Assembly: GCA_003990765.1 (NCBI GenBank)
Contig: RBNJ01000277.1
Span: 1 to 34,336, forward strand
Reading direction: 5' to 3'
Origin: Jimgerdemannia flammicorona
Lineage: Eukaryota
Length of the DNA: 34,336 nt
Under the pieces are notes generated by a model. It made no database searches and was not told where the DNA came from. It saw nothing but the letters and a program-made list of their open reading frames with translations. The position numbers and the translations under genes are program-made. The first letter of the stretch is position 1. Each line of letters begins with the position of its first letter. Shown piece after piece: positions 3,001-33,343 of the stretch.

Positions 3001-3555
3001 GATCAGCCCAAAAATGTCTCCCCGAGTCCACTAACGAACACAACCTTTCCATCTCCAACCAGTCTGCCAACCCACCACTTTCACCTCATATGCCTCTTCC
3101 TCCATCAGTTCTGTCCAACTCCTTATCCCGTACCATGTTAAAGTCACCCCCCATACAGTCAAGCCCAACTTCTCCCAATAAATCAGCCTCTTTCAATCTG
3201 CGAATTCAATCCACTCTCTCCCCTCTCTCAGCTGGGCAGTAACAAGACCCAACCATCAGTGAGCCCCTTCCAGACCTCTTCCACACTCCCCACACTATCC
3301 GAGACCCCCAATGTCCAATGTCCCCAATGTCCCCCATCCCTTTCCAAACAAGAATACCCACTTTCCCCCTCCAAACTGCTGCACCCCCCATTCCTTAGTC
3401 CAATCCTGTAAATCCACATCTGCATCATACCAAACATCCTATAACAAGAAGAGGTCTGCATCCAGACCCTGAAGCCAACCAAAGATGTACTTCCTCCTAG
3501 CCACCCCCCATAACCCATTAATGTTCAATGAGAATATCCTAGTTGTACTGTTCAT
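1..3555 (-). pseudogene. LINE-A ORF2 (APE endonuclease - reverse transcriptase - zinc finger), disrupted
   Basis: ATG at 3555 (MNSTTRIFSLNING), 31 nt after the ORF1 stop. Fragments 3206-3391, 2639-3070, 2012-2413, 1163-1936, 908-1147 and 219-686 carry the motifs in the expected order. Confidence 0.92.
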
Positions 3556-3586
3556 ATTGAATAGACATTGTAGAAGAGACCCCAAT

Positions 3587-7934: not shown

Positions 7935-8010
7935 ATAGTTACTCATGCCTGCCATACTTATAATTAGTCAGAATATCAAATTGAGGTTATTTATCTATAT
8001 TCTGAGAACA

Positions 8011-8090
8011 CTCCTATGTCTGGCAGTCACACTCATGTCCTACAGATATACTTATGTCCTATAGACACACTCATGTCCTGTAGATATACC
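8011..8090 (+). repeat. LTR-internal ~20-bp tandem repeat (actcatgtcctgcagacac-like, ~4 copies)
   Basis: Visible directly; counterpart at ~31726-31805 in the 3' LTR. Confidence 0.8.
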
Positions 8091-8430
8091 CAAATATTAT
8101 TAGAGATAGTAAATTTATAATTATCCAGATAGCAATCAGATAGCAACCATAATATATAAAATACCCCAGAGATAAGAGTGAATAAATCTCAGTTCAAATT
8201 GAAGTACAAACCAAAGAAATCTCTAAAGATTGAGCATTGGTCCCCTTTTCCCACTTCAGTCCACTTTCTGATATAAAGAATGAGTCTGTTTTTGGTTTGC
8301 TTATCAGATAAACCAAAAGAATTCAAAAAATCTACCAAGTTCAAGAAAGAACTTCATCACTATTCAAGTAATCTGCTGCTTAAGAAATAAGCTACAGTTT
8401 TCAAAAAGGAGTTCACCATCTTGTCACCAA

Positions 8431-8650
8431 AGCCAGTCTGTTGATGCAACTTTACAGTAGAACCAGTCTATTGACATAACTCCACATAAATGAAGCCAGT
8501 CTTGATGCAACTTTGCTCAAGAAGTCTGCATTCCCAGAGATCTCTTAAGGAATCTTGCCACAAGCCAGTCTCTTGATGCAACTTCACAGTAGAGCCAGTC
8601 TATGATATAATCCCATGCAAATGAAGCCAGTCTTTGATGTAACTTTGCCA
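8431..8650 (+). repeat. LTR-internal AGCCAGTC..TGATGCAACT array (6 cores; a 3-unit block duplicated with a ~132-bp period)
   Basis: Cores at 8431, 8461, 8494, 8563, 8593 and 8625; counterpart at ~32144-32360. Confidence 0.85.
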
Positions 8651-8808
8651 AGAATCCACCATCTGAGCTACCCGAGTTATCAAATTATCCAATATTCCCA
8701 GAAGAGCCAATTCAGAAAGAACCTGCATCACCTAAGTTATTCATGCTATCTGAGTTATTTCCCAAGAGCCTGCCGATTCAGGAAGAATCCATGTCATCTG
8801 CTGTTTTC

Positions 8809-8890
8809 GAGTTATCTGAATTATCTGCCCTCTGAGTTATCCGAATTATCTGCCCTCCAAGTTATCTGAATTATCTGCACCATCCGAGTT
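8809..8890 (+). repeat. LTR-internal 25-bp tandem repeat (gagttatccgaattatccgccctcc), 3 copies
   Basis: Units at 8809, 8834 and 8859; the 3' LTR has 4 units at 32522, 32547, 32572 and 32597. Confidence 0.88.
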
Positions 8891-9322
8891 ATTCACTCGT
8901 TCCCAGTGAGCCCAATTCAGGAGAATCTGTGCCAAACCAAGTTATCCGCCAAATCACATAAGGAAATCTGCCAAGATTGTCATGTTACACAGATATCACC
9001 CGCCACTCAAGAAGGAAACTGCTAAATTACCAGATTGTTCCACATAAGGAATCTATCCCACTATACAAAAGATTATCAAATAGAAATCACATACTTTTGG
9101 AGAATGCATATGCTAGAATTGCTGCTACACCCAGCCAATAAGAAAATCAACACACAAATCGACCATTGTATCCAGACTTAACAATTATACCACTAAACAC
9201 TAAGGACATTAGGAATCCTAGAACATTTTGTTGCTTTTTGACAAAGTAGCTAGGGGTGCAAGCCAAACTACATTAATCCCCAAACTTATAATTTGCCTCC
9301 ATTGAGCTGGGCACATTACATT

Positions 9323-12700: not shown

Positions 12701-15601
12701 GAATTGAGCTACCAATGTCCAGGCCCATCCACACTTTCCCCAAAATGCTCCTGTTCTAAAAGCTCCCAATAATCTGACCATGGACACCATTCCACCTTCA
12801 GTGACTTCCAAACATCCAAGCCCCAGTAGCTGGCTGTCAGAATCCAGTCGATTCTCATCCCCAGGCCCTCTGTCCAATGTGTGTATACCCTCCTATCCCC
12901 CCAGCACTCCCTACCCACATCTACCAGAGCACTCAGCCTTTCCACTTCCTCCCATGCTGCTAGCCCTCCACTCTGACCCTCAGCTCCCCATCCTCTATCT
13001 GTTCTATCTATCAGTACATCCCAGACTATATTGAAGTCTCCACCAAGCATATCCACCCCAGCCTCTACAAGGATCCCACTCTCCTGGAGACCCTTCACCC
13101 AATCCATATGCTCACTCTATACAGCAGGGCAGTAACAGAAGTCCACTGTGACTGGCTTTCAACTGGTATATATTCACTCTCTCCAGGCCAGTCTATCCCC
13201 CCAGCTCCTCATTTCCCTTATCTCCCCTCTGTCTTTCTGTACCAGAATCCCAATGTTGCTCTTCCAAACTGCCTCACCTCTCCATTCTTTCATCCATTTC
13301 AGCCTATCCAAATCATCCTCACACCTGACATTTTGCAAGAGAAAGAGATTGGCCTCCAATCCCTTCAGCCAAGTAAAAATGTTCCTAAATCGATAAGCAC
13401 TCCATAACCCATTCATCTTCAAAGAAAAAATGTTGGTTGTACTATTCATAATGAAATATGGTGTGTTATCAAGTCCTTCTCTACTGCTCCATGTTCATCT
13501 TCTCCTGCACCATGTCCAGATTATGTTCCACAATCACCTCCTCCTCTTCAGCCCTCTGAGCCTCCAATCCAGCCAGCAGCTCATTTATCTCCCCATTCAC
13601 CTTCTCCTTGAATTCCTCCTGGTACTCCAGGCAGGCTTTCTGCCAGAGCTGCAATCCATGATACTTGGTCCAGCAATATTCAGCCCTCTCCCCAGCGACT
13701 CTCATCAGCTCCACCTCTCACTCCTTATCCACCTCATAACCTTCCTCCTCCAGATATACTGCAAGAATTTCTGCCTTCAAGGCCATTACCACTCCATCTC
13801 CCTGCAGGATTCACACTCAATGCTCATTGCTCATTACTCTCAAATCCATCTCTCCCAGCTCTTTAGCCACCAGATTATTCATCATCCTGTATATCCAAAG
13901 TAGATTCCCCACCTCCTTCCCTCCAGGAGTCACTGGCCTCCCTCTATCCAGTATTGTGGTGTCAGCCCCAGTACTTGCAGACTCATCCCACTTCTCTGGG
14001 ACATCTACCAGTTTCTCCTCTCTGGCTGCTGCCACTTGTCCACCATTTGCTACCTCCAGAACTCCAAATTGCACTTGCTGGGCCCCCTGCATTAGCACAT
14101 CCTCCACCACCCTACTTTAGAAAGCTAGACCTTATCTGATGAGAGAAGTAGGGGTAGGAGAACCCTCCCCTGTCTCCTCCCAAACCTCAAGCATACCATC
14201 AGCATATGGATCATTGCCAGTTACCTCCCTGTTCTTGCCTGTCTCCTTCCCAGTACTCCCTCCACCCTTGCCTGCCCAGACACTTGCTTTAGTACCCCCT
14301 GTACACACCATTCTGCTCACATCCTTTAGAGATCTGCCTTCCATCTTAGCCAGCAGTTTCTTCTGTCTCTTACATCTCTGATCTCTTTCCCACTACTTCT
14401 TGTCCACTCAAATCCACTTCCCATCCACCACTTCCAAGTATATTTACTCCTCAAAAGCCTTTCAAGCCTTCACCTGCTGCTCCACAGCACCACTCAGCTC
14501 TTCCAGAGCTCTCAATAAGTCCTCTTCCTCCTCCTCACTCCCCTTTACCCTCATTACCTTACACAAGATCACCCCCCAGACCATCTCCAAAGGCCAGTCT
14601 CTTGTCTTCCCAGTAGCTTCTTTTCCTACCAGCTAAATCCTCACATCCATGTCTCTAGTCCTGAGTGAGGTCCCTTTCCAGACTCTGAATCCAATATCCA
14701 CTATCTCACTATACTCTGCCATGACCTCCTCAACTCTCCTTCTCATCTTCACTACTATCACCATGGGCACTCTTTTTACCAGCAGTTGGACCACTCTGGG
14801 ATCCCATTTCAGACAACATGCCATCAGAACACACACCTCCCTAACTATCAATCTAACCTTCAGCACTTCCTCCAAAGGCTCAGCCTCCTCAAAGCCCACC
14901 TCCACTCTCTCCAATCCCTCCAGAAACTTTATAAAAGCTGCTCCAGCCATCTGCTTAGTGATAAGCCCCAGCACTATTTTTGCCATCACTACTAGGCCCT
15001 GGAAGCACAATGTCACTACAAACACTGAGATCAATTTTTTGAGTAAAAAAGCCACTACCAGGCCCATCACACCATCTACCAAATCTTCTCACCTTCCAAG
15101 CCCCAGCCACTCAGCTGTGTCATCAGCAGTTATATCTGGATTTTTTTCCAGATTGGCAGTCCCATCACCATTAGTCATCATGCTCCCCCCAGCCACTACA
15201 CCTCTAGCACCACTGCCCCCCCTGCCAAGGGCTACTCTCCTATATACTGCTGCCTTCTCCATCTCCTTGTCATTTCTCAGCTAACCCTCTAGCCCCAACA
15301 CCTACTGTCTCCCCTTTACCATCTCTGCAAAGCTTGCCCTTCCAGACCCCTGTCCTCCACTACTGCCTCCTCCCCTTCCACATCCTCCCATCAGCAGCCC
15401 CCTCATACCCCCCCCCCAGGCCAGAGCCTCTCCCCACCTACTGTCAGTTGAATGCACTCAGACCACTCTGCCCAGTATGTACCTCAGATTGCCTATCAGT
15501 CGCCATGTTACTAGTCTCTTTTCTCCAAAAATGATATTGTAAATACTTTTCCAAAGGTTGTGTAACCTGAGTGGTACTAGAGAAAGATCATTCATCAAAA
15601 T
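9705..15601 (-). mobile_element. LINE-B: full-length (~5.9 kb) L1/Tx1-like element inserted in the Gypsy-B gag frame
   Basis: Poly(A) tail with (TA)n at 9705-9727 and AATAAA at 9749-9754. ORF2 from ATG ~13449 (NIFSLKMNGL, MLGGDFN, MRIDW, GMPQGDPLS, GAFADD). ORF1 from ATG 15506. TSD cctattgactctcta at 9690-9704 and 15603-15617. Confidence 0.95.
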
Positions 15602-17146
15602 GCCTATTGACTCTCTACCACCAGCTAGTACAGAATAGAAAAATCAAGGAATAGTTCCTTCAAGAAAACCCAGATCTATTTCACCCTGTCTGAGATCTTT
15701 TACACCATCTTCAGAATACCCAAGTATCCTGAACTCCAGCAATAACTCAGAAAGTAAATCAGAATCAGTACTAGAAATAGAATTAGAATTGAAATCAGAT
15801 TTAGTATCAGGATCAGAATCAGAACTAGAACCAGAAGACAGTGATAACAAAATAGCCATCCTATTGCCAACCTTTGCAGAATATCTTGAAAAAGACCCAA
15901 GAGAATTCCTTGATGGAATAGAAAGAATCACAGCTCTGAAAAACCTTACCTCTGAAAGAAAAATTGCCCTCTATAAGACTCAACTCAGAAAATCAGAAAA
16001 GGAATTTTTATCTGAGCAAGCAATGATCCAAACTCAGACCTTGGAGCAGCCATTATAGTAGCAACAACATGGCTAACAGAATACCAAGCCATGACCTATT
16101 GGCTCATTAAGAAGTATACAGAAAACAAGACCCACCATAGGGCTCAAGAATCTATCATGAGAATGAAGATGAATCTTAGAGAATTATCCAGAGAATTCTT
16201 TACAAGAATTCAGAAGAGAATGCATACAGCTGGGTTCAATGCTACCAACTAAGATATCATAGGTCCAATGACCTTTATGAATGGAATTCTGCCAAACATT
16301 ACTCAGCATATCTATACCCTAGGCATCAGATGACCTAAAGAAAAAGTAGATACAGTCTAAGGATTTTTTGATATCAGATAAGGAACTACCTGGAGTGACT
16401 ATGACAAGAAGAATAACAAAGAAGACATCCTGATTAAAGCCCTACAAGGACTCCTTCATAGACAGGAAAGATCAGAAGAAAGAAGACCAGCTATAGAAAT
16501 AAAGAAGGATAGGAACAAAATTAAAGACCTCAGTTCCAAGTTGGACCAATTGGTTGGACAGATTGAAAAACTGACCATATGTGAAAATTAGAGTTATCAA
16601 CAAGACAACAGAGAATATCCACTACTGAGGAATCAAGGTTATCCACTCAGAGATAATCGAAACTACCAGCAAGAAGAAAGAAGATACTCTGTCTGAGATA
16701 GAGTCTAAGTTCAATGCTTCTACTATAGACAATTTGGACATTATGCTACTGAATGTAATAATAGAAGAAGTGACCAAAGAGACTCAGAACCACCAAACTC
16801 AAGGAATGAAACTCAGTACAAGAAGACTGAAGTACATTCTGTTGAATACTTTGAAGAAGAAAGCAATAGTAAAGACTACAGTAACCTAGACTTGTACTCA
16901 GCTAAAGCTATTATCCAAAAGACAGTTTACCTAGTAGAGAAGAGAAAGAGACCCATAGAAAGACTGTCCAGAAATACTAGTAAAAGAATCTAAGAAGATG
17001 AAGAACATAAAGAGAAATAAGTAGAAATACCTCCTAGGTCTCTCTTACCTTTTGTCTCCAAAACAAATGAACTGCCCCCAGAGGATGAAGAAATAGAGCA
17101 AGAAGAATGGAAACATGCTGTCTCAAAGCCCAAGAAGAAGTATACT
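15602..17146 (+). pseudogene. Gypsy-B gag (capsid-like region plus CCHC zinc knuckle), disrupted
   Basis: LLPTFAEYLEKDPREFLD (gag N-terminal LPxF..DPxxF motif); knuckle C-F-Y-Y-R-Q-F-G-H-Y-A-T-E-C at 16715-16756 (second Cys read as TAT, probably from TGT). Confidence 0.85.
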
Positions 17147-19948
17147 CTGAAGACCATACCCAGAGACACCTACAATGAAGCCTGGCAGAAGATTTAAGAA
17201 GCTAAAATGGAAGTCTCTCTCTTGTAGTTCCTGCAACTGATAACAGCTGTAGTCAGAAATAAATTGCTGAGGACCACCAGATCTAGCACTGGCTTAGTCT
17301 CAATTCTACAACAAGAACCAGCTCCCATCCTATACAATCTACAGAGAGACATATCAGCATCTATCTCCATGGAGTTATTGGAGAACAAAAGGCGAAAATC
17401 ATTATAGATATAGGAGCAGCTGTCTGTGTTATTGCCAAATGATTCCTGGATATCCTCCAATAGCCCATTGATGGACTATCCAACCTCAGCTTCATAGTAG
17501 CAGATGGAGCCTGAACTCAACCTCTTAGAGAAGTACAAAACATTACCATCTCTCTTGGACATATTTAGTTCTCTATCCTGAAAGCTGTTGTCACCAAAGC
17601 TGTCACCTATGACATGATTCTTGACACCAATTAGATGAAGGAAATGAATGCAGTTATTGATATTGATCAACAAGTACTCAAGTTTGACTATTGAGACAAG
17701 AAGTACAGAGTTAAGATGACTAGCTATAAGCAATCAAAGAAGAAGAAGAAAGTCACTATATAGGAGAAATATGCCAGCAGTGAAGAATCTACTACAGAAG
17801 AGGAAGAAGAATATGAAAATAGAAATAATCCCAGGCTCAATTCCTGAATCAACCTAGTAGATGATAGACCAGAAGATAATGTGTGGGTTAGGAACACTGT
17901 CCCCATCACTATTGGAGACATTGCAGGAAAAATCAAAGAATGCCCAATCTGTCTCAAAAGACACAAGTGTCTCAAGCACTCCTCCATGATCATTGGGACA
18001 AGAAATTCGCCTGGTACAACCTGCCCTGAGTATAGAAGAAAGGAGAAGAAATACAGATATATTCCAGAGATACCTGTAGCTGAAACTGCAGAAGTACAAG
18101 CAATTTGGGGTTGAGAATCATCTGAGGAGAAAGAAACTTCTAAATAGAAGGTTCCTGAACAAGAAGTACCTAATGAAGAAGAGATCCATGAACTCATTCT
18201 CTGAGATAATTCTCACTAGACACTACCTAAAGATAATAATCCCTGGAATATTAAAAAAGAACCCAGCACAATTCTCATTATTCTCAAGTAAGAAACACAA
18301 CAAGAAAGAGCCTTTTAGCTAGGAAGATGTCTACATCAAATGGCCTTCCACTCTTCCCAAGACTACTGCTATCAGTGCCATCTATTGGATCAATAATAAA
18401 GATAGAGAACCTAAAGATTAGAACTCCCAACTACAGTTGTACAGTCAACCACCTTTCAGAAGGTCACCACAAAGTTGTAAAGCTGATTTAGAGAACAAGG
18501 TCTCTTTATCTGAACAGAAGTATATCCCTTGGCCACCCTTCTACCAACTTATGACTAAGATGGATACTGATTCCCAAGACAATAAGTGATCAATAACTAA
18601 GAATAGCATTTTTGAGCAATGGGATATTGCAACTATAGAAGACACCCAGACTGCCAAGACTGCAGACTTCAGAAGATTCACCTTAGCCAGGATGTTACAA
18701 TCCATATTTTGAAGAGAGGAGATAACAGAGGTCAGATCCAAAAAAAGCCAGACCAAGATACTAGGAATTAGAACTCTCAAGATCTATAATTTGGAAGAAG
18801 ACATCTCAGCTCTCATCAGACATACAATCTGTCAAGAATGGGTAGAAGATGCCACCAACTTCATGGAAGCCCTAGACCCTATAGAAAAAAGGGAATTAAT
18901 TATCTCTGAGATCCCTCTACTGAAGCCAGATGGCTGCACCTCAACCTCAGAGCTTGAAGACTTTCTGCCACTGGAGCTTCAGCCCAAGGATAGTCCAAAC
19001 TCAGTAAAGATATTGCCTAGTGTATCCTGCTACATTCCAAGGCCAAACCTCCAACCAAAGCTCATCAAGACGATATAGGATATGATCTCTACAGTCTGGA
19101 GGATGAATCCATCAAATCTGGAAGAACACTGATATTCAGAACCAGACTAGCCATACAGCCACCCCAAGAAACTTACATCCAACTGATCTCAAGGTCTGGA
19201 CTTTCCAGACAAGGAATAACTGTAGAAGGAGGAACCATAGACCCAGAATATACAGGAAAAATTAAGGTCATTCTGTACAATAGTAATATAGAATGGTACC
19301 AAATTATTTAAGAATAGAAGATTGTCCAAGTAGTCTTCATAAAAGTCAAGACCCCACAATTCCAAGAAGTCTCCAAACTGACTGAAGGAGTAAGACAAGC
19401 TGAAGGATTTGGAAGCTCCGATAAGAAGGAAGTATATCTCCTTCAGATCAATTATCTCAAAAAGAATGTCCCTCATTAAGTATACTGTCAATCAGTCAAA
19501 CTGTTCAAGAATCTCATCCTGGAGCCTAGAGACCAAACCACCTTCGAAATCTTTGCACCAGGAATCTCTTCTTTGAACCCAATGAAGATATCCTAAGTCT
19601 AGATATTAAAGGATATACATTCCCGACAAGATGAATCAAGTTCACTCCTGAGCAACCAACCAAAGCTGGGAAAGCATTATCTTGCCAAAAGGAACCATCA
19701 TAGGATATCTAGTGCCCTTCCTTAACTGAATCCACAGAGAAGTCTATGAGCTAAACCTATCAAGAAATGGCAAAAGATTTCAGAAGAAAAGAAAAACCCC
19801 TCAGTAACCCAAGAGACAGTAAAGCCTTTCACCATTATTATACTGGAGAGGAATTAATACCTCAGCAACAGCAACAACTAGAAGAACTTCTCAATAAATA
19901 TATATTAAGATATCTTTACTACTGATTATGATAACCTGCTATACAACC
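17147..19948 (+). pseudogene. Gypsy-B pol copy 1: protease - unknown Cys/His region - dUTPase - RT N-terminal linker
   Basis: IIIDIGAAVCVI at 17398-17433 (copy 2 reads ILIETGAA; consensus DTG). Linker N..WESIILPKGTIIG and QQQQQLEELLNKY, then cut by LINE-C. Confidence 0.88.
19024..19422 (+). pseudogene. dut: Trimeric dUTPase domain in Gypsy-B pol, copy 1 (2 in-frame stops)
   Basis: Manual translation: ILLHSKAKPPTKAHQDDIGYDLYS...LISRSGLSRQGITVEGGTIDPEYTGKIKVILYN...II*E*KIVQVVF...VRQAEGFGSSD; all five dUTPase motifs in order. Confidence 0.95.
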
Positions 19949-22026
19949 TTTTTTTTTTTTTTTTTTTTAAAAGTTACTTGGACTTCTTTCTTTATTAATA
20001 CCCATCTATCTCATATAAATACATTGAGCCCACCCCTCATTTAATCCCCCTTGGGGGGCCCCCCTCCCCCACCCCTACTTGATGAAAGGCCACTTTATCT
20101 AACACTATCTCTACTTGCCCACTACTCTGTTCACAGATCCTTTCCACCAGACTGTAATGTTGCCAACTCTGGAGACTCTAATCCACCCACCACCCAGTCA
20201 GCAGATCCCCCATCAACCTCTCACACCTTAACAACTTCTCCTGTAAACCCATCTGTTATCTCTCCTCAAAAACAAAAAGCCAATATCCTGTCAGTCCCAC
20301 TCACACTGCCAAAACCCACTCTACAGTGAGCCAACTATTGTTCACACCACTCACTAGCTGAAATTTCAAATCCTCCCAGTGGCCTCTCACACTATCCAGC
20401 CTTCTCTCCACACCCAGCCTATTCTCTACTTCTATCCAAAAGTCCCCCAAAACCTCACACTCTCCCAGCCAATGTTCTGGCATCTGTACAAATCCCCCAA
20501 CTTGTCCTATATTATAACACTCCTCACAATCTAATTGGCCACCTTCTACCAGATGCCCTGCATGGAAATTCAACATGACATTCCTCTGCAGCATTCTCCA
20601 CCATACCACCCAGAACTTGGGAGGAAGCCATGTATATACCTCAGTACTCTATGACCAGATACCTGCCCAGTCCCACTCCTCACCAATCCTTACTACCTGC
20701 TAGCCACTTGGCCAAAGATCCTGACCAAGACTCTGCTAACACTCCACTCTATCCCCAATATCAAACTCAGCAAGCAGAGCATCCCCCAGAAGTAGTCTGT
20801 CCCATTGCCACATATCTGGACCCCACATCACCTCCCCCTCATTACCTCACCAGCACAGGCCAATTCTGTATGCTCCATCTACCACCCCCCACCAAAAGCC
20901 CTTAAACCACAGCCATCAACTTCTATTCAGCCTCACCAAAGAGAGTAAATCTCCTGAGGACCCTCGAGGGGAGGATCTCATCTCCCACACCTTCTGCAAC
21001 AGTAGCACCCAACCCTCTCCCTGCAGTTCAACAGCTCTCTTCAACCACCAGGCTTGCAGGCAGTACAACCTCTTAGGGAAATCTACAAGACCTAGACCTC
21101 CCCTAACCACCAGTGTTGCAAGAGTTTCCCATCTGACCTGAGACCTCCTCCCTACCCAAATCCAATCTCTAGCCATCTTCATCAGCCTCTTTACCACCCA
21201 AGCTAGGAAGTCTAGATGATAGGCCATATACCATAGCTTGGGGAACCAATAGACATTCAGAATTGACACCTGCTCTGCCAGAGAGATATGGTGGCCCCCC
21301 CACCCTCTAAGGGCCTCTCCCCAAATACTCACCCTGCTTTCCCACCATACTTATGACAAGACAGATCCATATACAGAAAGGAAGTTGCCCAGATATTGCT
21401 CCACCTCACCAGTAGGGACAATTGTTCCAATGATGTCTCCACCCACTAGCTTATTTCCTAGCACTATTGTCTCACACTTATGCCAGTTGAGCTTCACCCC
21501 AGAGTGTGCCTCATACCATTCCACTGTCTCCTTAAGTGCCTCAACATCTATCACAGAACCAAGTCCAACTACTATGTCATCAGCAAAGGCTCCCACCTTC
21601 CACACTATACTATATATAGAGAACCCTGCCATCTTCTGGTGAATCCTATCCATTGAAGATTCTAATGAAAGGGCATAGAGAATAGGAGACAGTGGGTCTC
21701 CCTGAGGAACTCCTCTTCTAAGAAAAACACCAGATCTCAGTGACCATTACACATTAGTGCTGCCTGACTGCCCTCCAACAGATTCAATATAGAAGTCTGA
21801 AATTGTGGTGGGACACCAATTCCATCCAATACCTTGCTCAGCCAAACCCACCATACATAGTCATTGGCCTTCTTCTGGTCTAAAAAGACCAATCTACCAT
21901 CCAGTCCATAAGCCCAGGCCCCTTCAATGACACTATACACCTATGCAGTCCTATTCCTTATAAGCCTGCCTCCAACAAAGCCCCACTACTCCTCACTCAG
22001 TACCTGTTGGGCAACTTTCTATAGCC
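19949..22026 (-). mobile_element. LINE-C: 3' part of an L1/Tx1-like element closer to LINE-B, interrupted by LINE-D
   Basis: Poly(T) 19949-19968 on +, AATAAA at 19991-19996, CEEC...HWLGEC zinc finger, GAFADD, LVFLDQKKA. Confidence 0.93.
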
Positions 22027-25000
22027 TTTTTTTTTTTTTTTTTTTTTTATAGTCCCTTGGACTGCCCTTTATTACCGAAGTCTATAATGTAAACAATACA
22101 ATGTCACCCCTATCCTCAACCAATGCCCCGGGGGCCCAAACCTCCCCCCTCATCCTCTCCCTGCCCAAGCACCACCCAATTACCCACTATCCGAACCCTC
22201 CCACCACTCTTCTGGGCGATATGCTGCACCAGAACCCTGCAGTACCCCCCACCCATCCCCCAACCCCGCCACCAGCTATTCAAAATATCCAACATCAACC
22301 ATTCCCACCGGACCATCTTGTCACCAACCCCAACCTGGCGCCCTTCCTCAAATACATAAACCCAATGCCAGCCAGTCCAACCCACATAGCCAAAGCCCAA
22401 CTAAGGGTCAGCCATTCATCCCCAACTCCACCCACCAGTCGCTGGTGGAGCTCTCCCCATCTCTCCCCTTCCTCTCCCTCCCTGGCACCCAGCCCTACCC
22501 TGTCCATAATACCTCTCCAAAACTCCCCCAAAACCTTGCATTCACCAAGCCAATGTTCAGGTATTTGTATCACTCCTCCCTCCTGACCAACATTGAAACA
22601 ATTCTTGCACTTGAATACCCCACCATCCACCAAGTGTCCAGACCAATAGTTCAACATCATATTCCACCATAGGACCCACCATCACACCACCCAGAACTTG
22701 GGAGGCAGCTACTGCCACACCCATTTGCTCCAAAGCCAGAGTCCATTCCATTCCCACTCCTCTCCAATTCCAACTCTCTGCCAGGCTTCTGGCCACAGGT
22801 CCCCACCTAGGCCTCACAGACACTCCAGGCCCTCACCAAGCTGAAAGTCCTCCACCAGGACCCCACCCAATAGAAGCCTGTCCCACCACCACATCTGCAG
22901 TCCCCAAACCTCCTCAGCTTCATCACCTTGTCACCGAAGTCCAATCTTCTTAGCACCATCCACCACCCCCCACCAAAAGCCCATAAACCACATCTTCTTG
23001 CTCCCTTCCATGGCCACCATCACAAGCAGATCCCTGGAGCCACCACGTGGGGAGTACTGAACCTCCCACAACCTCTGCATGAGTGGCACCCACTCTCACC
23101 CCCTGAGCTTGCTTGCCCTTCGCAGCCACCAGGCTCTCAGACATAGAAGCTGCTTTGTAAAGTCCACTAGGCCCAGCCCACCTCTTTCCAAGAGCAGTGT
23201 GAGCACCTCCCAACCAACCTGGCTTCGCTGCCCTCCCCAGATCCATGACCTCGCCATCTTCAACAACTCCTTAACCACCCAGGTTGGGAAATCCAAATGA
23301 TATCCAACATACCACAGCTTTAGCATCCAGTACACATTCAACACCATCACCCTTCCGGCAAGAGACATATGCTGGCCTCCCCATCTCAGCAAGATATTAC
23401 CTCACTTCAGAAGTTTATGGTCTCACCATGCCTGGGGAAGAAGAGATCCAAACACCGAGAAGTAGATCCCCAAGTAGCACACTGGTTCACCCGCTGGTAC
23501 CACCATCCCAATAACATCACCACTAACAATGCCAGCACCCAGCACCAGCATCTTGCATTTGTGCCAGTTAAGTTTAGCACCAGAACCTCGCTCATACCAT
23601 TCCACAGTCCTCTGTAATTCTCCCACATCGCCCAAGGAGCCCAGCCCGACCACCATATCATCAGCAAAGCCCCCCACCTTCCAGTTCACCCCTAAAATGT
23701 CCAAGCCTCCAATCTTGCACTGAATTCTGTCCAGTAGTGGCTCCAGGGAAAGAGTATACAATATGGGTGACAAGGGGTCCCCCTGTGGTACCCCATGTCC
23801 CAGGGGAAAGGTCACCCCCTAGTGGCCATTGATGACCAATACTGCCTGACTGTCCTCCAAGAGGCTGATTAATGATCTTCAGACCCCTGGCGGGATGCCA
23901 ATCCACTTCAGCACTCCCTCTAGCCATATTCTCCATACTCTATCATAAGCCTTCTCTTAGTCCAGAAACACCAATCTGCCATCCACCCCTGTTGCCCAGG
24001 TACCTTCAATCACTCCATGAACCCAGGCTGTCCCATCATGAATTAACCGACCACCGACAAACCCACGTTGCTCAACACCAAGAATCTGCTGAGTGATGCC
24101 TTACAACCTAATCACTAAGATTTTCATCACCAATTTGTGGTCCATGTCAAGAAGCATAATTGGCTGCCAGTTCTTCCAGTCCTCTTGCCTACCCTTATTC
24201 TTAAAGAGCAAAGAGACCAGCCCCAAGTGCTGTCCCCCAATCCAGGCACCAGACCAAAGAACTCCATCACACATAGCAGTCATTTCCTCTAGCACCTCAC
24301 TCACCCCAGTCATCTTCTGCCAAAAATCCCAGAGAAGCCCATTCTCTCCTGGAGCTGTCCCCTTACTCATTGAGGCCACAACCCTGCAAATCTCCTCACC
24401 ACTCACCAGGTCCCCCAATGCCCCAAGTCCCATCGCAGGGTCCGGGTGCCAATCCCCCAGCTATCTTTCAATGTTCAGGGCATCCAATCCCCCATCCTCC
24501 TCACTCCAAAGATTCCTCCACCAGGTTCACAGTAGGTCCAGAATTGCTGGAGTCTCTACCACCAGCTCGCCATTCTCATCCAAAACTCCCTCTCACTGCT
24601 GCCTTGTTTGTCATACCTGTAACAACCATGACAAGAATCTGGTAGGCCTCTCCCCCTCCTCAAGCCCCTGCCACCGTAGGCAGGCCACCATTCCCTGCAA
24701 CTGCTCCTCCTCCTCCCTGTGGAGTACCCCTTTGAGCTCCTCCACCTCCTGCCAGATCCTCACAATATGCCAATCAGTTATGGCCCCATCCTCCAACACA
24801 CCTGCCCATCTCTCCATGAGTGCTGCCAGATGCCGCAAGGCCCACAGTATCTGCCACCTTTACTGGGCACACTTCCCTTTCCCTGCTTCCCTCTAATACT
24901 CCTGAGCCTTTGTCTTCAGCCTTCTCCAGCAGTCCCCAATCACCAATCCTTGTTTCCACCACCTGCTTATATTTCCAACCACCTCTGATTCCCATCTCTC

Positions 25001-26179
25001 TCACAACACCCTATCTTTCAACAGGGAAGAATTTAATCACCAATATCCAGGTCCATCCTCATTACTCCCAAATCTCCCCCCTCCAAGCAGTCCCCAGTGA
25101 TCAGACCATAGACACCATATGACTTCCAGCACTGACCAGACATCTGTTCCCCAACACTCTGCCATTAGAACCCAGTCAATCCTGGAGCCCAGTCCTGCTG
25201 CCTGATGGATCCACCGATCACCCCAAAAATGTCTTCCTGAGTCTACTAGAGAACATAACCTCTCCATCTCCAACCAGTCGCCCAACCCACTACTTTCACT
25301 CCGCATACCTCTCCCTCCATCAGTCCTGTCCAACTCCTTATCCCGTACCATGTTGAAGTCACCCCCCATACAGTCTAACCCAACTTCTCCCAACACACCA
25401 GCCTCTTTCAATCTGTAGATCCATTCCACCCTCTCCCCTCTCTCAGCTGGGCAGTAACAGGACCCAACCATCAGCAGGCCCCATCCAGGCCTCTTCCACA
25501 CTCCCCACACCACCTGAGACCCCCAATGTCCAATGTTCCCAATGTCCCCCATCCTTTTCTGAACAAGAATACACACTTTCTCCCTCCAAACTGCTGCACT
25601 CCCCCATTCCTTAGTCTAATCCTGTAAGTCCACATCTGCCTCATAATGAACATCCTGCAGTAAGAAGAGGTCTGCATCTAGTCCCTTAAGCCAACCAAAT
25701 ATATACTTCCTCCTAGCCGACCCCTGTAGCCCATTAACGTTCAATGAGAAAATCCTAGTTATACTGTTCATATTGAAGAAATGTTGCAATAGAGACTCCA
25801 ACCTATAATTCCATACTCATTCCATCTCCCGCCAGATCCAAGCACTGCTCAGCTTCCAATTCACCCTCTGCATTATCCTGAGCATCCAGTGCTCCCAAGA
25901 TTTCCTGACATTCCACCCTGTCCACTTTCTCCATATCAGCCCTGTAGTCCAAGCAGACAGTGCACCACTTCTCCAGTCCCTTCCTCGAATTCTACAAGAA
26001 AGTCGCTCTGTCACTCGCAATCCTCCTAAGTTCCTCCTCCCACTGATCATCAACCTGATACTCAACCGACTCTAGGAGGACTGCTAGGATCTCATTCCTC
26101 ATCTTCCTCAGCACCTCCTCCCCCTGTAGGATCTCCTCCCAATGCTTCTCCTCCAACACCCTGAAGTCCTCACCCCCCC
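22027..26179 (-). mobile_element. LINE-D: LINE-A family copy, lacking its 5' part (breaks inside ORF1)
   Basis: Poly(T) 22027-22048 and AATAAA at 22068-22073. ~22220-26177 is colinear with 1-3962. APE, RT (GVPQGDPLSP, GFADD) and CKNC...HWLGEC motifs. No TSD at the right junction. Confidence 0.95.
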
Positions 26180-29100
26180 CTAAAGACTATACCCAAAGAC
26201 ATCTATAATGAAGTCTGGCAGAATATTCAAAAAGCCAAAATGGAAGTCCCTCTCTTGTAGTTTCTGCAACTAATACCAGCTGAAGTCAGAAACAAATTGA
26301 TAAAGACCACCAGGTCTAGCACTGGCTAAGTTCTAATTCTATAGCAAGAACCAGCTCCCATCCCTATCCAATCTGTAGAGAGATATATCAGTATCTATCT
26401 ATATAGAGATATTGGAGAACAAAAGGCAAAAATTCTCATAGAAACAGGAGCAGCTATCTGTATCATTGCCAAATGATTCCTGGATATCCTCTAATGGCCC
26501 ATTGATAGACTATCCAACCTCAGCATTATAGTAGCAGATTGAGCCTGAACTCAACCCCTTGGATAAGTATGAAACATCATTATCTCTCTTGGACATATTC
26601 AGTTCTCTATCCTGAAAGCTGTTGTCACTGAAGCTATCACCTATGACATAATTCTTAGCACCAATTGGATGAAGACAATGAATGCAGTTATTGATATTGA
26701 TCATTAAGTGTCCATGTTTGACTACTGAGACAAAAAGTACAGAGTTAAGATAACTAGCTATGAGTAATTAAAGAAGAAGAAGAATCTGAAAATAGAAATA
26801 ATCCCAGGCTCAATCTCTGAATCAATCTAGTAGATGACAGGCCAGAAGATAATGTATGGACCAGAAACACTGTCTCCATCACTATTGGAGCCATTGTAGA
26901 AGAAATCAAAGGATGCCCAATCTGTCTCAAAAGATACAAGTGTCCCAAACACTCCTCCAAGATCATTGGGATAAGAAATTTTCCTGGCATAGCCTGCTCT
27001 GAGTACAGAAGAAAGAAGAAGAAATGCAGACATATTCCAGAGATACCTGCAGCTAAAGCTGCAGAAGTAGAAGTAATTTGGGGTCAAGAATCATCTGAGA
27101 AGAAAGAAACTTCTAGAACAAGAGGTTCTTGAACAAGAAGTATCTGAAGAAGAAGAGGTCCATGAACTCAATCTCTGGGATAATTCTCACTAGATACTAC
27201 CTAAAGACAATAATCCCTGGAATGTTAAAGAAGGACCCAGTATAATCCCCATTATACCCAAGTAAGAAATATAATAAGAAAAAGCCTTTCAACTAGGAAG
27301 ATATCTACATCAAATGGCCTTCCACTCTCTCCAAGACTACTGCTATCAGTGCCATCTATTAGATTAATAAGAAAGACAGAGACCCTAAAGATTAGAACTC
27401 CCAATTACAGTTGCACAGTCAACCACCTTTCAGAAAGTCACCACAAAGATCCAAAGCTGATTTAGAGGACAAGGTCTCTTTACCTGAACAGAAGTATCTC
27501 TCTTGGTTACCCTTCCATCAACCTATGACTAAGATAGATACTAATTCCCAAGACAATAAGAGATCAACAACTGAGAACAGCATTTTTGAGCAATGGGATA
27601 TTGTAATCATAGAAGACACCCAGACTGCCAAGACTACAGACTTCAGAAGATTCACCTTAGCTAGGATATTGCAATCCATATATTGAAGAGAGGAGATAAT
27701 AGAGGTCAGATTCAAAAAAGCCAGACCAAGATATCAGGAAGAAGGACCCTCAAGATCTACAATTTAGGAGAAGATATCCTAGCTCTCATCAGATATAAAA
27801 CCTGCCAAGGATGGGTAGAAGATGTCACCAACTTTATGGAAGCCCTAGATCCTATAAAAAAAAGAGGAATCAATTATCTCTGAGACCCCTATACTGGAGC
27901 AAGATGGTCACACCTCAACCTCAGAGCTTGGAGACTTCCTGCCACTAGAGCTTCAGCCTAAGAATAGCCTGAACTCAGCAAAGATGTTGCTCAGTATACT
28001 CTGCTACATCCTAAGGCCAAACCTCCAACCAAAGCTCATCAAGAAGATATAGGGTATAATCTCTACAGTATGAAGAATGAACCTATCAAACCTGGAAGAA
28101 CACTGATATTCAGAACTGGAATAGTTATACTGTTACCCCAAGGAACTTATATCTAACTAAGCTCAAGATCTGGACTTTCCAGATAAGGAATAACTGTAGA
28201 AGGAGGAATCATAGACCCAGAATATACAGGTGAAATTAGGTCATTCTGTATAATAATAGTACAGAATGGTACCAAATTATTTAAGAACAGAAGATTGCCC
28301 AAGCAGTCTTCATGAAAGTCAAGAGCCCACAATTCCAAAAAGTCTCCAAACTGACTGAAGGAACAAGGCAAGCTGAAGGATTTGGAAGCTCAGATAAGAA
28401 GAAAGTATATCTCCTTCAGGTCAACCATCTCAAAAAGAATGTCCCTTAGCAAGTATACTGCCAACCAGTCAAACTGCACAAGAATCTCATCCTGGAGCCT
28501 AGAGAGCAAACTACCTTCGAAATCTTTGCACCACCTGATCCCAGAAATCTCTTCTTTGAATCCAATGAAGATATCTTGAGTCTAGATATTGAAGGACACA
28601 TACTCTCTAATAAGATGAATCCAGTTCACTCCTGAGCAATCAACCAAAGCTGGGAAAGCATCATATTACCTAAAGGAACCATCATAGGACATCTAGTGCT
28701 CTTCCTCAACTGAATCCACAGAGAAGTCTATGAGCTAAACTTATCAGAAAATGGCAAAAGATCCTAGAAGAAAGGAAAGACCCCTTCGTTATCCAGGAGA
28801 CAGTAAAGTCTTCCACCAATATTAGAGAGGAATTAACACCTCAGCAATATCAACAACTAGAAGAACTTCTCCCTCAACCAGCTCTTGAATTAGTCCTATA
28901 CTTATATATTGTACCAAAGAAAGAAGGATGGAGACTCTGTGTAGACTACAGAAAACTCAATTCAGTAACCAAAAAGGATACCTATCCTTTGCCCAGAATT
29001 GATGACCTTTCAGATAAGTTATAAGATATCAGATACTTCTACAGTATAGACCTTTTTACGATCCAAAGACATTCAGAAGACAGCCTTACTTACTCTGGAA

Positions 29101-30011
29101 AAACTGTTTGAATACATCTGAATGCCCTTTGAACTTTGCAATATATCTCCTATCTTCTAGAGAATAATGAATTTGGTCTATACTTCTCTGATCCACTACT
29201 TCTGATTATATATATAGATGATTCAAACATCTATTCAGCAAATTTCAAAGAATATCTATATTACCTTGAAGAATTCTTCAAGCTCACCTACAAAAATCAT
29301 CTGAGACTCAATGTCAAGAAATACTTTCTTGAGAAACAGAAACTTGAATTTCTTGGATTTATAGTTTTGAAAGAAGAAACCCATGCAGACCCAAAAAACA
29401 TTGAGAAGATCAACAATTGACCAGTACTCAAGACTCTAAAGAAAACACTATCCTTTCTGATACTAGTATCCTACTATAGAAGGTTTATCAAGAACTTTGC
29501 CCAAATTGCTACCCTAATTTGAATCCTTCTCAAGAAAGAAGTATCTTATAAATAGACAGAATTACATGAACTAGCCATTAAGGAACTCAAGCACTACATG
29601 ACTACAGCACTAATCCTTGTGTGCCCCAATCTATAGAAGTAATTCATCTTATATATAGATATCTCTAAAGATGGCCTGGGAACAGTTCTAGCTCAAGAAG
29701 GATTTAAACAATAACACTATATAATAGCTTATGCAAGTCAAGCTACCAATCAGCAGCAGATGAACTATGATAGCACTAAATTAGAATGTCTTATAGTTAT
29801 ATAAGTAGTCACTCTATTTAAGCATTACCTTATCAGAAAAAGATTCAATCTAATAACTGACCATATAGCTCTCAAATAGCTATTCAACTATAAGAAACCC
29901 ACTAGAATCCTAGTCTGCTAGATCCTTATCCTTCAGGATTACAAAATAACCATTATTCACAAAGTAGGAAAAGTCCACAACAATGTTGATATACTTTTCC
30001 ACCAATCCTAA
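26180..30011 (+). pseudogene. Gypsy-B pol copy 2: protease - unknown region - dUTPase - RT - RNase H, disrupted
   Basis: 26180-28870 is colinear with 17147-19892. It continues into [61 protein letters not shown] and HNNVDIL. Internal deletions at ~28870 and ~29057. Confidence 0.92.
27998..28395 (+). pseudogene. dut: Trimeric dUTPase domain, copy 2 (stops plus a 1-bp deletion)
   Basis: LLHPKAKPPTKAHQEDIGYNLYS...SSRSGLSR*GITVEGGIIDPEYTGEI...EQKIAQ...TRQAEGFGSSD. Confidence 0.93.
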
Positions 30012-31053
30012 TGAACCAGAAGAAGGATGTACTAAGTAACTATACCCTAAAGGAAGCTCTACTGACTATTAAGATATAAGAAGATCTCATTTGAAAAGAA
30101 TACCAGAAAGCCCATCAAGGATAAGTGAATATAGAAGAAAAGCTATAAACAATATATCAACATTGGCCCAATCTCAGAATATAGGTCCAGAATATACTTA
30201 AGAAATTTGACACTTGCCAGAAGTATCAAAGAAGAAAGAACCACCAAGTATCATTATAATCAATTGTACCACCAGACAATATCTTTCAGAGATGGAGAGT
30301 AGATATAATTAAACTCTTACTAGTTACAATAAGAAGAAACAAGTATATCTTTATATTTGTAGAATATCTGACCAAGTGGCCCAAGGCTTTCTCAATGGAA
30401 ATTTCAGATACCTTGACCATTGTAGTCCTCCTCCATAGACTCACACTTAGATATAGACCTTCAGAAGAACTTATCTCTGACTAAGGCACAGAATTCATCA
30501 ATAATATAGTTATAAGTTATGCCCAAATCCACAAGATCTACCTCAAATAGACTATATCATATTATCATCAGACCAATGATATGACAGAAAGAATGAACCA
30601 AACTATTAAGAAAGAACTTATCTGAGTCAATCCTTCCAACTGGGACCTCTGCTTATCTGAGATCCTATGGGAAATTCAGAATATCCCTGCTATCTCTACT
30701 AAACAAAAGCTCTTCTAAATGATGTTTACTAAGAAAACCAGAACTGCTGATTATGAGAACCTTGGAGACCTCCTCAAGAAAGCAGAGCAGTTATATAATC
30801 AAGCCTGAGTTCAGATTATTAAAGCCCAAGAAAGATAAAAGAAGTACTATAATCAGAAGCAGAAGAATCAGAAGATTAAGATCAGAGATCAAGTAGAAGT
30901 ATGATCAAAACAAACTTTGCGAAGAATTTTATCTTATACACAATATCAGAGGGACCAGCATCTATGTACTTAAGTAGCATAGATAGACAAACCCTGAGAA
31001 CACCAGTATATATCAATTGTCTCAAGATGTATCTCTCCCCATACCATGAATAA
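30011..31053 (+). pseudogene. Gypsy-B integrase (H2C2 remnant, DDE core, C-terminal module; no chromodomain seen)
   Basis: KAHQG..HWPNL..DTCQK; WRVDII..NKYIFIFVEYLTKWPKAF; ELISD*GTEF; HQTNDMTERMNQTIK; ends ...LKMYLSPYHE* at 31053. Confidence 0.9.
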
Positions 31054-31558
31054 GAGAATTGATAACTACCTCCAGACCCTTATTCTCAGTTTCTTCCAAG
31101 CTCTACCAGTTTCTCTATCATAGTTCTGAGAACCCAATAGAATATATCTTCAAAGAATCCAGGTTTGTTAAGAAAACCTCACTCTGGCTGAAAGATTACT
31201 CCAGATCCACCAGCTGCAGGCCTATTATGTAATTGGATAATAGTTGCAGAATCTTCCCCCCTCAGATCTGGTCTATATCTACAACACTACTAGCCTAAAC
31301 AGAAGGAATACCACTATTGTAGAAAGACTATATACAATCTATAAACAGAACCCTTTAGCTTTAACCCAGGTCTAGTTCTCTCTGAATAATCTCCAAAGGA
31401 TTACCCTATCCATCTACCTCAGTATCATATACTAAGTTGAGACCCTATTCCTCAAAAAAGAAGAGGAGCTCTTAGAATGGAGTGACTACAATATAAATAA
31501 TAATGATAGAACAGATATAGATACAGAAGCTGCTTATACTTATTGGGATAATGACTGA
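31046..31558 (+). pseudogene. Putative extra ORF (~170 codons) between integrase and PPT, unknown function
   Basis: ATG overlaps the integrase end (ATGAATAA). It reads MNKRIDNYLQTLILSFF...LQAYYVIG...IVERLYTIYKQNP...AAYTYWDND* if internal stops are reverted to CAR/CGA and one frameshift is allowed. Confidence 0.5.
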
Positions 31559-33102: not shown

Positions 33103-33343
33103 TTATAAATATATAAGTAGTATAAAAGAAATTAAACAAGATAAATAAAATAAGCAAAATATAAAAAATAATATATTGAATACTCTGAACATTAAGCTAT
33201 AGTATATAGATTATAATAAGATATTGCTTAATATAGTAACTTATAGTTTTGACTAAAAATTACATAGATATAATAATATATCTAATTTATTAACTTGAAA
33301 TTTATATATATTGCTTAGCTAAAACCTATTTACTATTAACTAG
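33103..33343. other. Very AT-rich low-complexity flank (probably old eroded repeat DNA)
   Basis: Strongly A/T-biased and TpA-rich; no ORF. Confidence 0.5.

Follow-up and report, generated by a model that had tools for sequence, protein, structure and literature searches.

A decayed Ty3/gypsy lineage in Jimgerdemannia flammicorona carries a dUTPase followed by an apparent second dUTPase-fold domain without catalytic motifs

The stretch of Jimgerdemannia flammicorona DNA analysed here (the window; contig RBNJ01000277.1, 34,336 nucleotides) is very probably a nest of dead retroelements, in which one Ty3/gypsy-type element has left two incomplete and decayed copies together with a 3' fragment (Table 1). 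In this reading ORF1 of the element combines Gag (with a CCHC knuckle), an aspartic protease, two Cys/His knuckles, a trimeric-type dUTPase and a motif-less second dUTPase-fold domain. Three more ORFs come after it (RT-RNase H, integrase and ORF4), each shifted to -1 relative to the preceding one, and the element has no chromodomain. By self-BLAST, positions 17147-19892 are ~87% identical to 26180-28871. Copy 1 ends where a minus-strand LINE starts, and is collinear with the better-preserved relatives P0067, P0001 and ORF2 of contig L001 (tblastn). Its protease active-site motif has decayed to DIGAA (17398-17421), and the second of its Cys/His knuckles aligns with residues 1-20 of P0001 and with GYCECG...CFYC of P0067; a Pfam search matched no family to the two-knuckle spacer. 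The 5' end of copy 2 adjoins a LINE copy (26178/26180), and Pfam matches to dUTPase, RVT_1, RT_RNaseH and rve are spread over three frames of copy 2. The L001 proteins were located in it by tblastn, ORF2 at 28737-29996 (residues 47-118 unmatched, 28871/28908), ORF3 at 29993-31038 and ORF4 at 30917-31258.

Table 1. Features of the dUTPase-bearing element in the window
Feature	Position	Strand	Basis or remark
Third fragment of the family, 3' region only	7935..9322	+	~84% identical to 31651-33104 (self-BLAST)
Copy 1, 5' part: gag to first ~60 RT codons	15855..19948	+	self-BLAST, tblastn
Copy 1 gag Zn knuckle CFYYRQFGHYATEC	16715-16756	+	motif search
Copy 1 aspartic protease	17347..17730	+	tblastn with P0067 residues 383-515, 36% identity
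Copy 1 spacer with two Cys/His knuckles	17941..18660	+	CPICLKRHKC 17941-17970; MGYCNYRRHPDCQDC 18619-18660
Copy 1 dUTPase domain	19021..19428	+	Pfam PF00692; all five motifs, 2 in-frame stops
dUTPase motif 1, IGYDL (copy 1)	19075-19089	+	
dUTPase motif 2, SRSGLS (copy 1)	19189-19206	+	
dUTPase motif 3, GGTIDPEYTG (copy 1)	19228-19257	+	
dUTPase motif 4, KIVQ (copy 1)	19318-19329	+	
dUTPase motif 5, RQAEGFGSS (copy 1)	19393-19419	+	
Copy 1 tail, apparent second, motif-less dUTPase-fold domain	19429..19850	+	tblastn with P0001 residues 268-404, three pieces
Candidate -1 frameshift site (ORF1 into RT), counterpart of the L001 G_GGA_AAC heptamer	19762..19768	+	three-way alignment
Copy 2: protease to ORF4	26180..31258	+	Pfam, tblastn
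Copy 2 dUTPase domain	about 27995-28401	+	Pfam in two frames, tblastn
Copy 2 tail, apparent second dUTPase-fold domain	28393..28797	+	72% identity to L001 tail; one frame with 4 stops

The order protease, RT, RNase H, integrase, together with a Gag CCHC knuckle, was found across the window copies, P0067 and L001. In a search for LTRs with a target-site duplication, self-BLAST showed no direct repeats flanking the copies; both adjoin LINE copies, and the element ends may be missing. Since no LTRs were found for the window copies, they are assigned to Gypsy by their domain order and Pfam families. A further Gypsy element, at 5745-7548 of the window, contains PR, RT and RNase H domains without a dUTPase, and the dUTPase is therefore a trait of the lineage that bears it.

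The original prediction held that the element carries a complete dUTPase with five motifs, and proposed a search with the Pfam dUTPase profile as a check. That search returned a match for copy 1 that is far beyond chance (E 2.5e-26, 92.4 bits against a gathering cut-off of 22 bits for PF00692, profile 3-128 of 129, translation of 19018-19428 with X at the stops). Copy 1 keeps every key residue: Asp (motif 1), Arg-Ser (motif 2), Asp and Tyr (motif 3), Gln (motif 4), and Arg and Phe (motif 5). Motif 3 reads IDP(E/G)Y here as against IDEDY in the aligned solved vaccinia enzyme, with the catalytic Asp and Tyr retained in the alignments. The five motifs are thus all present, but the domain is complete in its motifs only, as two in-frame stops (TAA at 19309, TAG at 19315) interrupt it. 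A dUTPase in the other copy had also been predicted and is indeed there, though frameshifted, with three stops (28154, 28184, 28282) and with motif 1 changed to IGYNL (Asp to Asn). It matches Pfam in two pieces, profile 3-77 at E 4.5e-12 and profile 77-128 at E 3e-5, and its split over two frames therefore points to a 1-base frameshift near 28240-28273. Judged by these lesions, both dUTPase copies in the window are dead and have no function now.

Only four distinct relatives with the same type of ORF1 were found, all of them metagenomic (P0001, P0003, P0067 and P0128). P0001, an intact 404-aa protein whose cluster has 19 members, shows 60% identity to the copy 1 dUTPase and matches the Pfam dUTPase family at E 3.3e-27, its best match among solved dUTPases being vaccinia 2okd (E 1.5e-22). 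In a 35-row alignment it holds all invariant residues (R192, S193, Q237, R259, G265, S266) and all near-invariant motif residues (G154, D156, G205, D208, Y211, G213, G263, F264). The dUTPase part of its AlphaFold model has a pLDDT of 94-98 and superposes on the Entamoeba dUTPase 3lqw with an rmsd of 1.1 over 129 columns and a TM-score of 0.95 by target (Foldseek), so that this relative's model shows the beta-barrel fold. P0067 is a single ORF of 1179 aa with zf-CCHC at 169-184, protease at 400-485 (gag-asp_proteas/RVP_2) and dUTPase at 897-1021; tblastn aligns it collinearly with the two copies in the window, and it gives the ORF1 order as Gag(CCHC)-protease-Cys/His knuckles-dUTPase-tail. On the metagenome contig L001, ORF1, whose dUTPase has one in-frame TGA where P0001 has Arg, is followed in the -1 frame by RT-RNase H (1310-2794), and the 72 bases shared by the two ORFs contain G_GGA_AAC; integrase comes next (2770-3855), its ORF linked to the preceding one by an ATGA stop/start overlap, and after it ORF4.

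As the reading frames of these relatives stand, the dUTPase is the 3' part of ORF1 and not part of the RT frame, RT-RNase H being encoded next, at -1. The original prediction, a dUTPase inside pol and between protease and RT of a Ty3/gypsy element, is borne out in the order protease, dUTPase, RT, RNase H, integrase, and is refined in that the enzyme lies outside the RT frame. The further claim that the copy 2 dUTPase is in frame with the upstream polyprotein is correct, the copy 2 frame agreeing residue for residue with the intact P0001. A programmed -1 shift into the dUTPase had also been considered, because copy 1 seemed to have an open frame before 19020, relative to which the dUTPase is at -1; it was rejected, since in P0001 and in copy 2 the knuckle region runs on into the dUTPase without a change of frame, and copy 1 reaches that frame only via compensating indels. 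As to the shift into RT, the G_GGA_AAC heptamer is present in one contig only (L001), the two copies in the window both carrying mutations in it (in copy 2 the corresponding site is at ~28746), and the RNA 3' of the candidate heptamer folds no better than shuffles (z -0.47).

Directly after the dUTPase lies a conserved tail of 135 aa. In copy 1 it is broken by indels (10-base and 1-base gaps), and in copy 2 it has stops at 28447, 28633, 28711 and 28765. A model of the tail, built from a relative's sequence, has a core pLDDT of 82-93, and in a wide structural search with it the top 22 rows were all dUTPase or dCTP-deaminase folds (Z 6.9-11.1; next row Z 5.9). The best match is domain II of the Epstein-Barr virus dUTPase (Z 11.1, rmsd 1.8 over 81 residues), and others are cytomegalovirus pp71 (8qdo, Z 10.4), murine herpesvirus ORF10 (7byf, Z 9.3) and the Mason-Pfizer virus dUTPase (2d4l, Z 8.8); Foldseek matches against the PDB and a viral library agree with a dUTPase fold. 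None of the five catalytic motifs occurs in the tail alignment, all five being in domain 1, and sequence kinship between tail and dUTPase went undetected by hhalign (probability 4.5%). On the predicted structure, the tail thus seems to be a second dUTPase-fold barrel without the catalytic motifs.

Few relatives were found in the collections searched. From the tail, jackhmmer over 172 stored proteins retrieved only P0001, P0003/P0172, P0067 and P0128, and the tail profile gave three matches among the 'longer' proteins, all previously known relatives, and no match in a scan of viral contigs. A metagenome scan yielded one locus, a word-indexed search of 'longer' proteins with dUTPase one match, and residues 740-1179 of P0067 as query four matches including itself. 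A feature search with the tail placed it nearest to clusters whose commonest taxa are Rotifera, Oomycota and Arthropoda (scores 0.94-0.96), which is a weak lead, recognition being 2223 and thus below the 2300 mark.

The dN/dS ratios between L001 and the window were 0.22 for the dUTPase (with copy 1, 133 codons), 0.26 for the region before it and, with copy 2, 0.15 for the tail (131 codons); between copy 1 and copy 2 the ratio was 0.6. Codon comparisons of this kind indicate that purifying selection has acted on dUTPase and tail, and that the dUTPase is a constrained part of the element.

A dUTPase between protease and RT had been thought to occur in only a few fungal Ty3/gypsy lineages and to be possibly novel here. 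The first view was too narrow, and the second finds no support in published work, which places the domain between protease and RT in the Postia placenta element PosPlaTy3-5, cases in Phanerochaete chrysosporium and in Tmt1 of Tuber melanosporum having been reported earlier (PMC2864245), in the bdelloid rotifer elements Juno, Vesta and TelKA (PMC5408684) and in giant planarian Gypsy elements (PMC6431247). The element described here resembles PosPlaTy3-5, the Phanerochaete elements and Tmt1 in being a fungal Gypsy-type retrotransposon with a dUTPase, but the hosts of these are Dikarya, and Additional file 2 of PMC2864245 assigns their dUTPase domains to Gypsy elements that have a chromodomain. 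In the present element none is found after the integrase: ORF3 of L001 ends right after the GPY module with Pfam matches only to Integrase_H2C2, zf-H2C2, rve and rve_3, and copy 2 has no Chromo match. The present element is also set apart by a polyprotein split over four -1 frames and by the apparent second dUTPase-fold domain after the enzyme, none being mentioned in the passages of PMC2864245 consulted. The rotifer elements, in the portions of PMC5408684 consulted, are alike in being Gypsy-like and without a chromodomain, with the dUTPase between PR and RT, and Juno also has a Zn knuckle associated with the dUTPase; however, that knuckle comes after the dUTPase whereas two Cys/His knuckles precede it here, the hosts are animals, env-like or enzymatic ORF3s are frequent, and no second dUTPase-fold domain is reported in those portions.

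Likenesses extend to viruses. In the betaretroviruses (Mason-Pfizer monkey virus, MMTV), too, the dUTPase is encoded before RT, and a -1 shift lies between its frame and pol. Their dUTPase stands before the protease and is reached via a shift from gag, whereas here it stands after the protease and in the same frame as Gag (P0067). The two-domain dUTPases of herpesviruses (Epstein-Barr virus, 2we1/2bsy) have two dUTPase-fold barrels per chain, as the P0001 model appears to have, and an alignment of that whole model with 2bsy spans 244 columns. The herpesvirus enzyme divides its catalytic motifs between both domains; here, in contrast, all five are in domain 1 and none in domain 2.

Several alternatives to an inherited, catalytic dUTPase deserve consideration. 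That the dUTPase is a host-gene fragment or pseudogene lying by chance in the repeat nest is a reading to which we give practically no credence: nothing but the general messiness of the locus speaks for it, while the domain occupies the same place in two copies ~87% alike, is encoded, in P0001 and P0067, in a single frame together with the preceding knuckle region and the following tail, and lies immediately 5' of RT in L001. The shared position in both copies and the relatives' reading frames refute it. A rather unlikely alternative is a fresh, independent capture from host or virus by this lineage, as opposed to inheritance from an ancestor common to other dUTPase-bearing Gypsy elements. Fungal elements apparently gained the domain independently and from different sources (PMC2864245), the element lacks a chromodomain, unlike the described fungal chromoviruses, and in a dUTPase tree the window and P0001 stand apart from other retroelement-borne dUTPases (P0142, P0022, P0109, P0134, P0066/P0084). 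However, the tree (133 rows, with the host dUTPase and the published elements' sequences left out) should be interpreted with caution, since it is poorly supported: 65 of its 130 inner branches fall below 80, nine are starred, and the window lies in no starred clade. Moreover, P0067, the flanking domains of which are clearly homologous, is still placed elsewhere, and a clade of window, P0001, P0067 and P0128 is not rejected (p-AU 0.228); the position in the tree consequently says little. Among the ten proteins looked up, the tree neighbour P0015 is a dUTPase of Linderina pennispora.

It could also be hypothesized that the module has been diverted from catalysis to signalling, assembly or the binding of host factors, like herpesvirus dUTPase-related proteins, with the motifs kept for ligand binding only. 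The motif-less domain directly 3' is the more constrained of the two (dN/dS as above), and the best structural matches of the tail include pp71 and ORF10, which we take to be inactive dUTPase relatives. Such inactive relatives are usually without the conserved motif residues; the first domain here, however, retains the five motifs and all invariant residues of 35 aligned dUTPases, and we consider this hypothesis improbable. We propose, tentatively and as a possible rather than a probable reading, a Gypsy lineage with a two-part dUTPase module at the end of the Gag-protease frame, immediately ahead of the shift to RT. In this module a trimeric-type domain competent for catalysis would be joined to a conserved motif-less barrel, more constrained than the enzyme, that may serve as its functional partner, e.g. 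by controlling the oligomer state, docking the enzyme in the particle or binding host factors; the barrel would then be a retrotransposon counterpart of herpesvirus dUTPase-related proteins.

In active elements of this family, enzyme output would equal that of Gag, since the dUTPase coding region precedes the shift into RT, and that shift may use the heptamer seen in L001. By analogy with trimeric dUTPases the enzyme would assemble as a homotrimer; dUTP would be hydrolysed near the reverse-transcription complex, so that less uracil would enter the cDNA and less cDNA would be lost by uracil excision. A uracil-limiting role has been proposed for retroviral dUTPases (PMC4531489). It had been argued that the dUTPase would not protect against deamination, and this reasoning is sound with regard to the C-to-T decay seen.

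In conclusion, a Gypsy dUTPase between protease and RT is here extended to one more host group beside Dikarya, rotifers and planarians, which is useful for annotation and unsurprising. The point that appears new, going by the modelled fold, is the motif-less second dUTPase-fold domain after the enzyme; no description of a second or inactive dUTPase-like domain in retrotransposons was found in a narrow literature search, which is a thin basis for novelty. With the enzyme in the Gag-protease frame, this lineage would be expected to make it in structural-protein amounts. If the tail has a role, the lineage would offer a small, testable system for uses that retroelements make of dUTPase folds beyond dUTP hydrolysis, and the same question arises for herpesviruses and phages.

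The prediction of a complete dUTPase within a Gypsy pol is borne out as an observation. In copy 1 of the element, 19018-19428 matches the Pfam dUTPase profile from 3 to 128 of 129 (E 2.5e-26, 92.4 bits, stops read as X), and all five dUTPase motifs that had been named are in place. The second copy also carries the domain (27995-28401), with a Pfam match in two frames. The copy 1 domain has in-frame stops at 19309 and 19315, and that of copy 2 is broken by three stops and a 1-base frameshift, with GYNL in place of GYDL. A programmed shift into the dUTPase of copy 1 was considered and rejected, the apparent frame change being made up of compensating indels. The predicted position between protease and reverse transcriptase (RT) agrees with the plan of two metagenomic relatives, the protein P0067 and the contig L001, which are collinear with the window copies; the dUTPase is read in the Gag-protease frame and not in the RT frame.

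A word-indexed search of longer proteins returned P0001, a protein of 404 residues that stands for a cluster of 19 sequences and is 60% identical to the window dUTPase. HMMER, run exhaustively over 1.84 billion representatives, gave 18,620 proteins resembling dUTPase with E no higher than 0.001, and P0003 (a 70% identical fragment) and P0067 were among the best 150 of these. A Pfam scan covered 44 of those 150, chosen as longer or multi-stretch matches, and found retroelement domains in seven (P0022, P0066, P0067, P0084, P0109, P0134 and P0142), Copia-type proteins with dUTPase among them. P0109 and P0134 are Copia-type polyproteins (gag_pre-integrs, SH3_retrovirus, RVT_2) with the dUTPase between integrase and RT, and thus dUTPase is also borne by Ty1/copia-like elements in the database. 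Two or three full dUTPase domains stand in tandem in 20 of the best 150 matches (P0002, P0004, P0007, P0013, P0014 and others), which are apparently covalently linked “trimers”.

P0067 is a single ORF of 1179 residues, collinear with both window copies, with two Cys/His knuckles and a tail of 158 residues. Both knuckles, for which Pfam has no matching family, are conserved in P0067 and likewise in P0001. L001, the sole metagenome locus recovered (4101 bases, 99% identical to P0001), has a 72-base overlap of ORF1 and RT containing G_GGA_AAC in the position of a canonical -1 slippery heptamer. This candidate frameshift signal is mutated in both window copies, and no RNA structure was predicted downstream of it (z -0.47). 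No chromodomain follows the L001 integrase. The fourth ORF (30917-31258 in the window, 3699-4100 in L001) sits in the -1 frame of the integrase, matches no Pfam family, and is 43% identical between window and L001 over 118 residues. In tblastn, copy 2 lacks a match to residues 47-118 of L001 ORF2, the N-terminal part of RT; this break, at 28871-28908, coincides exactly with the end of similarity to copy 1.

Coordinates of features in the window and in related sequences (P0067 in residues)
Feature	Location	Strand or frame	Remarks
C-rich, strongly skewed blocks	1-5500, 10000-15500, 20000-26000		
Non-LTR retrotransposon, four copies/fragments	3-5400, ~10000-15400, ~19950-22050, 22224-26178	minus	
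Gypsy element without dUTPase	about 5745-7548	plus	RVP_2, RVT_1, RNase H in one frame, few stops
dUTPase-Gypsy 3' fragment	7935-9322		
dUTPase-Gypsy copy 1	about 15855-19948		
dUTPase-Gypsy copy 2	26180 to about 33100		
Copy 1 Cys/His knuckles	17941-17970, 18619-18660		CPICLKRHKC, GYCxxxxxPxCxxC...H; protease-dUTPase spacer
Copy 2 Cys/His knuckles	26914-26943, 27593-27634		
Copy 1 tail	19429-19850		
Copy 2 tail	28393-28797		
P0067 CCHC knuckle	169-184		
P0067 protease	400-485		
P0067 dUTPase	897-1021		
L001 ORF1	ends at 1382		
L001 RT-RNase H	1310-2794	-1 relative to ORF1	
L001 integrase	2770-3855	-1 again	ATG overlaps RNase H stop as ATGA
L001 fourth ORF	opens at 3699		

Directly after the dUTPase, ORF1 continues into a tail of about 135 residues that is conserved in P0001, P0003, P0067 and P0128 and shows the strongest constraint among the measured parts (dN/dS 0.15 over 131 codons). 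Pfam gave no match in the tail. AlphaFold models it, within P0001 and alone, as an all-beta domain with a core pLDDT of 82-97 from only five aligned sequences. The top Foldseek matches in the PDB are all dUTPases (FIV 1f7o, E 8.6e-4, TM 0.53/0.62). When 48,161 chains were searched exhaustively by structure, the first 22 were dUTPase or dCTP-deaminase folds, led by domain II of the Epstein-Barr virus dUTPase (Z 11.1, rmsd 1.8 over 81 residues) and including cytomegalovirus pp71 (Z 10.4), EIAV dUTPase (Z 10.0) and human dUTPase (Z 9.6); the first different fold scores Z 5.9. A search of a viral structure library agrees. The tail has none of the five dUTPase motifs, and hhalign detected no sequence kinship with dUTPase (probability 4.5%). 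ORF1 is therefore predicted to end in a dUTPase that looks active and, after it, a second, motif-less barrel of the dUTPase fold.

P0001 retains all invariant and near-invariant residues in a 35-row dUTPase alignment, and its model (pLDDT 94-98 across the domain) superposes on solved dUTPases (3lqw: TM 0.95, rmsd 1.1). Between L001 and copy 1 the dUTPase dN/dS is 0.22 over 133 codons, at a saturated dS of 1.2; between copies 1 and 2 it is 0.6, as expected of decay after insertion.

The window is made up of nested, dead retroelements, and its base composition switches between C-rich and A-rich blocks. The C-rich blocks are minus-strand copies of a non-LTR retrotransposon (RVT_1 E 1.7e-21, reverse translation of 1-5400), whose G-rich coding strand gives a GC skew of about -0.5 on the plus strand; 3-3962 and 22224-26178 are 86% alike. 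T-runs near 9900, 19900 and 22050 lie near the low-coordinate ends of these blocks. The A-rich blocks (about 37-43% G+C) contain a Gypsy element without dUTPase, in which just 134 residues separate protease and RT and whose RT shares 36% identity with its dUTPase-family counterpart, and three pieces of the dUTPase family itself. Short tandem duplications at 8418-8659 and 32131-32629 (with repeat units of roughly 110 and 50-60 bases) fall in the 3' region of the latter, downstream of ORF4. Copies 1 and 2 both terminate exactly at non-LTR insertions.

The two larger pieces overlap in element coordinates (17147-19892 and 26180-28871, about 87% identity) and are thus two copies, about 9 kb apart, and not a single element split by insertion. 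Across 355 codons of ORF1 that align with a relative, each has ten in-frame stops, five of them at the same codon in both (18907-19805 against 27881-28789). Three of these five are CGA to TGA and could be parallel hits; the remaining shared stops suggest that both copies derive by DNA duplication from one already-dead copy, rather than from two transpositions. After the split copy 1 underwent 65 changes and copy 2 underwent 82, of which 46 and 47, respectively, are C-to-T or G-to-A, with C-to-T outnumbering G-to-A on one strand (30 to 16 in 18767-19948, 30 to 17 in 27739-28930). Decay is mostly in CpA and CpC contexts, and CpG is nearly exhausted (observed/expected 0.09 in copy 1, 0.04 in copy 2).

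The original prediction was upheld only in part where it turned to interpretation. It had proposed an independent capture, and the dUTPase domain is too short for its source to be traced by tree. Our quick maximum-likelihood tree took 133 domains from 155 proteins with a match, leaving out 20 proteins with at least two dUTPase stretches and two partial ones (P0003, P0152), and its resolution is poor, with 9 of 130 inner branches starred and 65 under 80. The window dUTPase groups with P0001 and, weakly, with three short proteins; P0067 is placed apart, and a forced clade of window, P0001, P0067 and P0128 was not rejected (p-AU 0.228). The claim of novelty fails because the same placement between protease and RT is already described for PosPlaTy3-5 of Postia placenta (PMC2864245), the rotifer elements Juno, Vesta and TelKA (PMC5408684) and giant planarian elements (PMC6431247). 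The first of these papers also places the dUTPase elsewhere in PosPlaTy3-3 and -4, and cites prior reports for Phanerochaete and Tuber Tmt1.

Retroviral dUTPases are proposed to keep dUTP low where cDNA is made and so to lessen uracil in cDNA (PMC4531489). By analogy, the role in this family is likely the same: in active elements the dUTPase may hold dUTP down at cDNA synthesis, cutting uracil entry. The window family differs from the published dUTPase-bearing Gypsy elements in host group, in being without a chromodomain and in its four-frame layout, as well as in its second, predicted dUTPase-fold domain. Our literature search, a thin basis, found no published report of such a motif-less second barrel, and it is this predicted domain that constitutes the main point of interest of the family.
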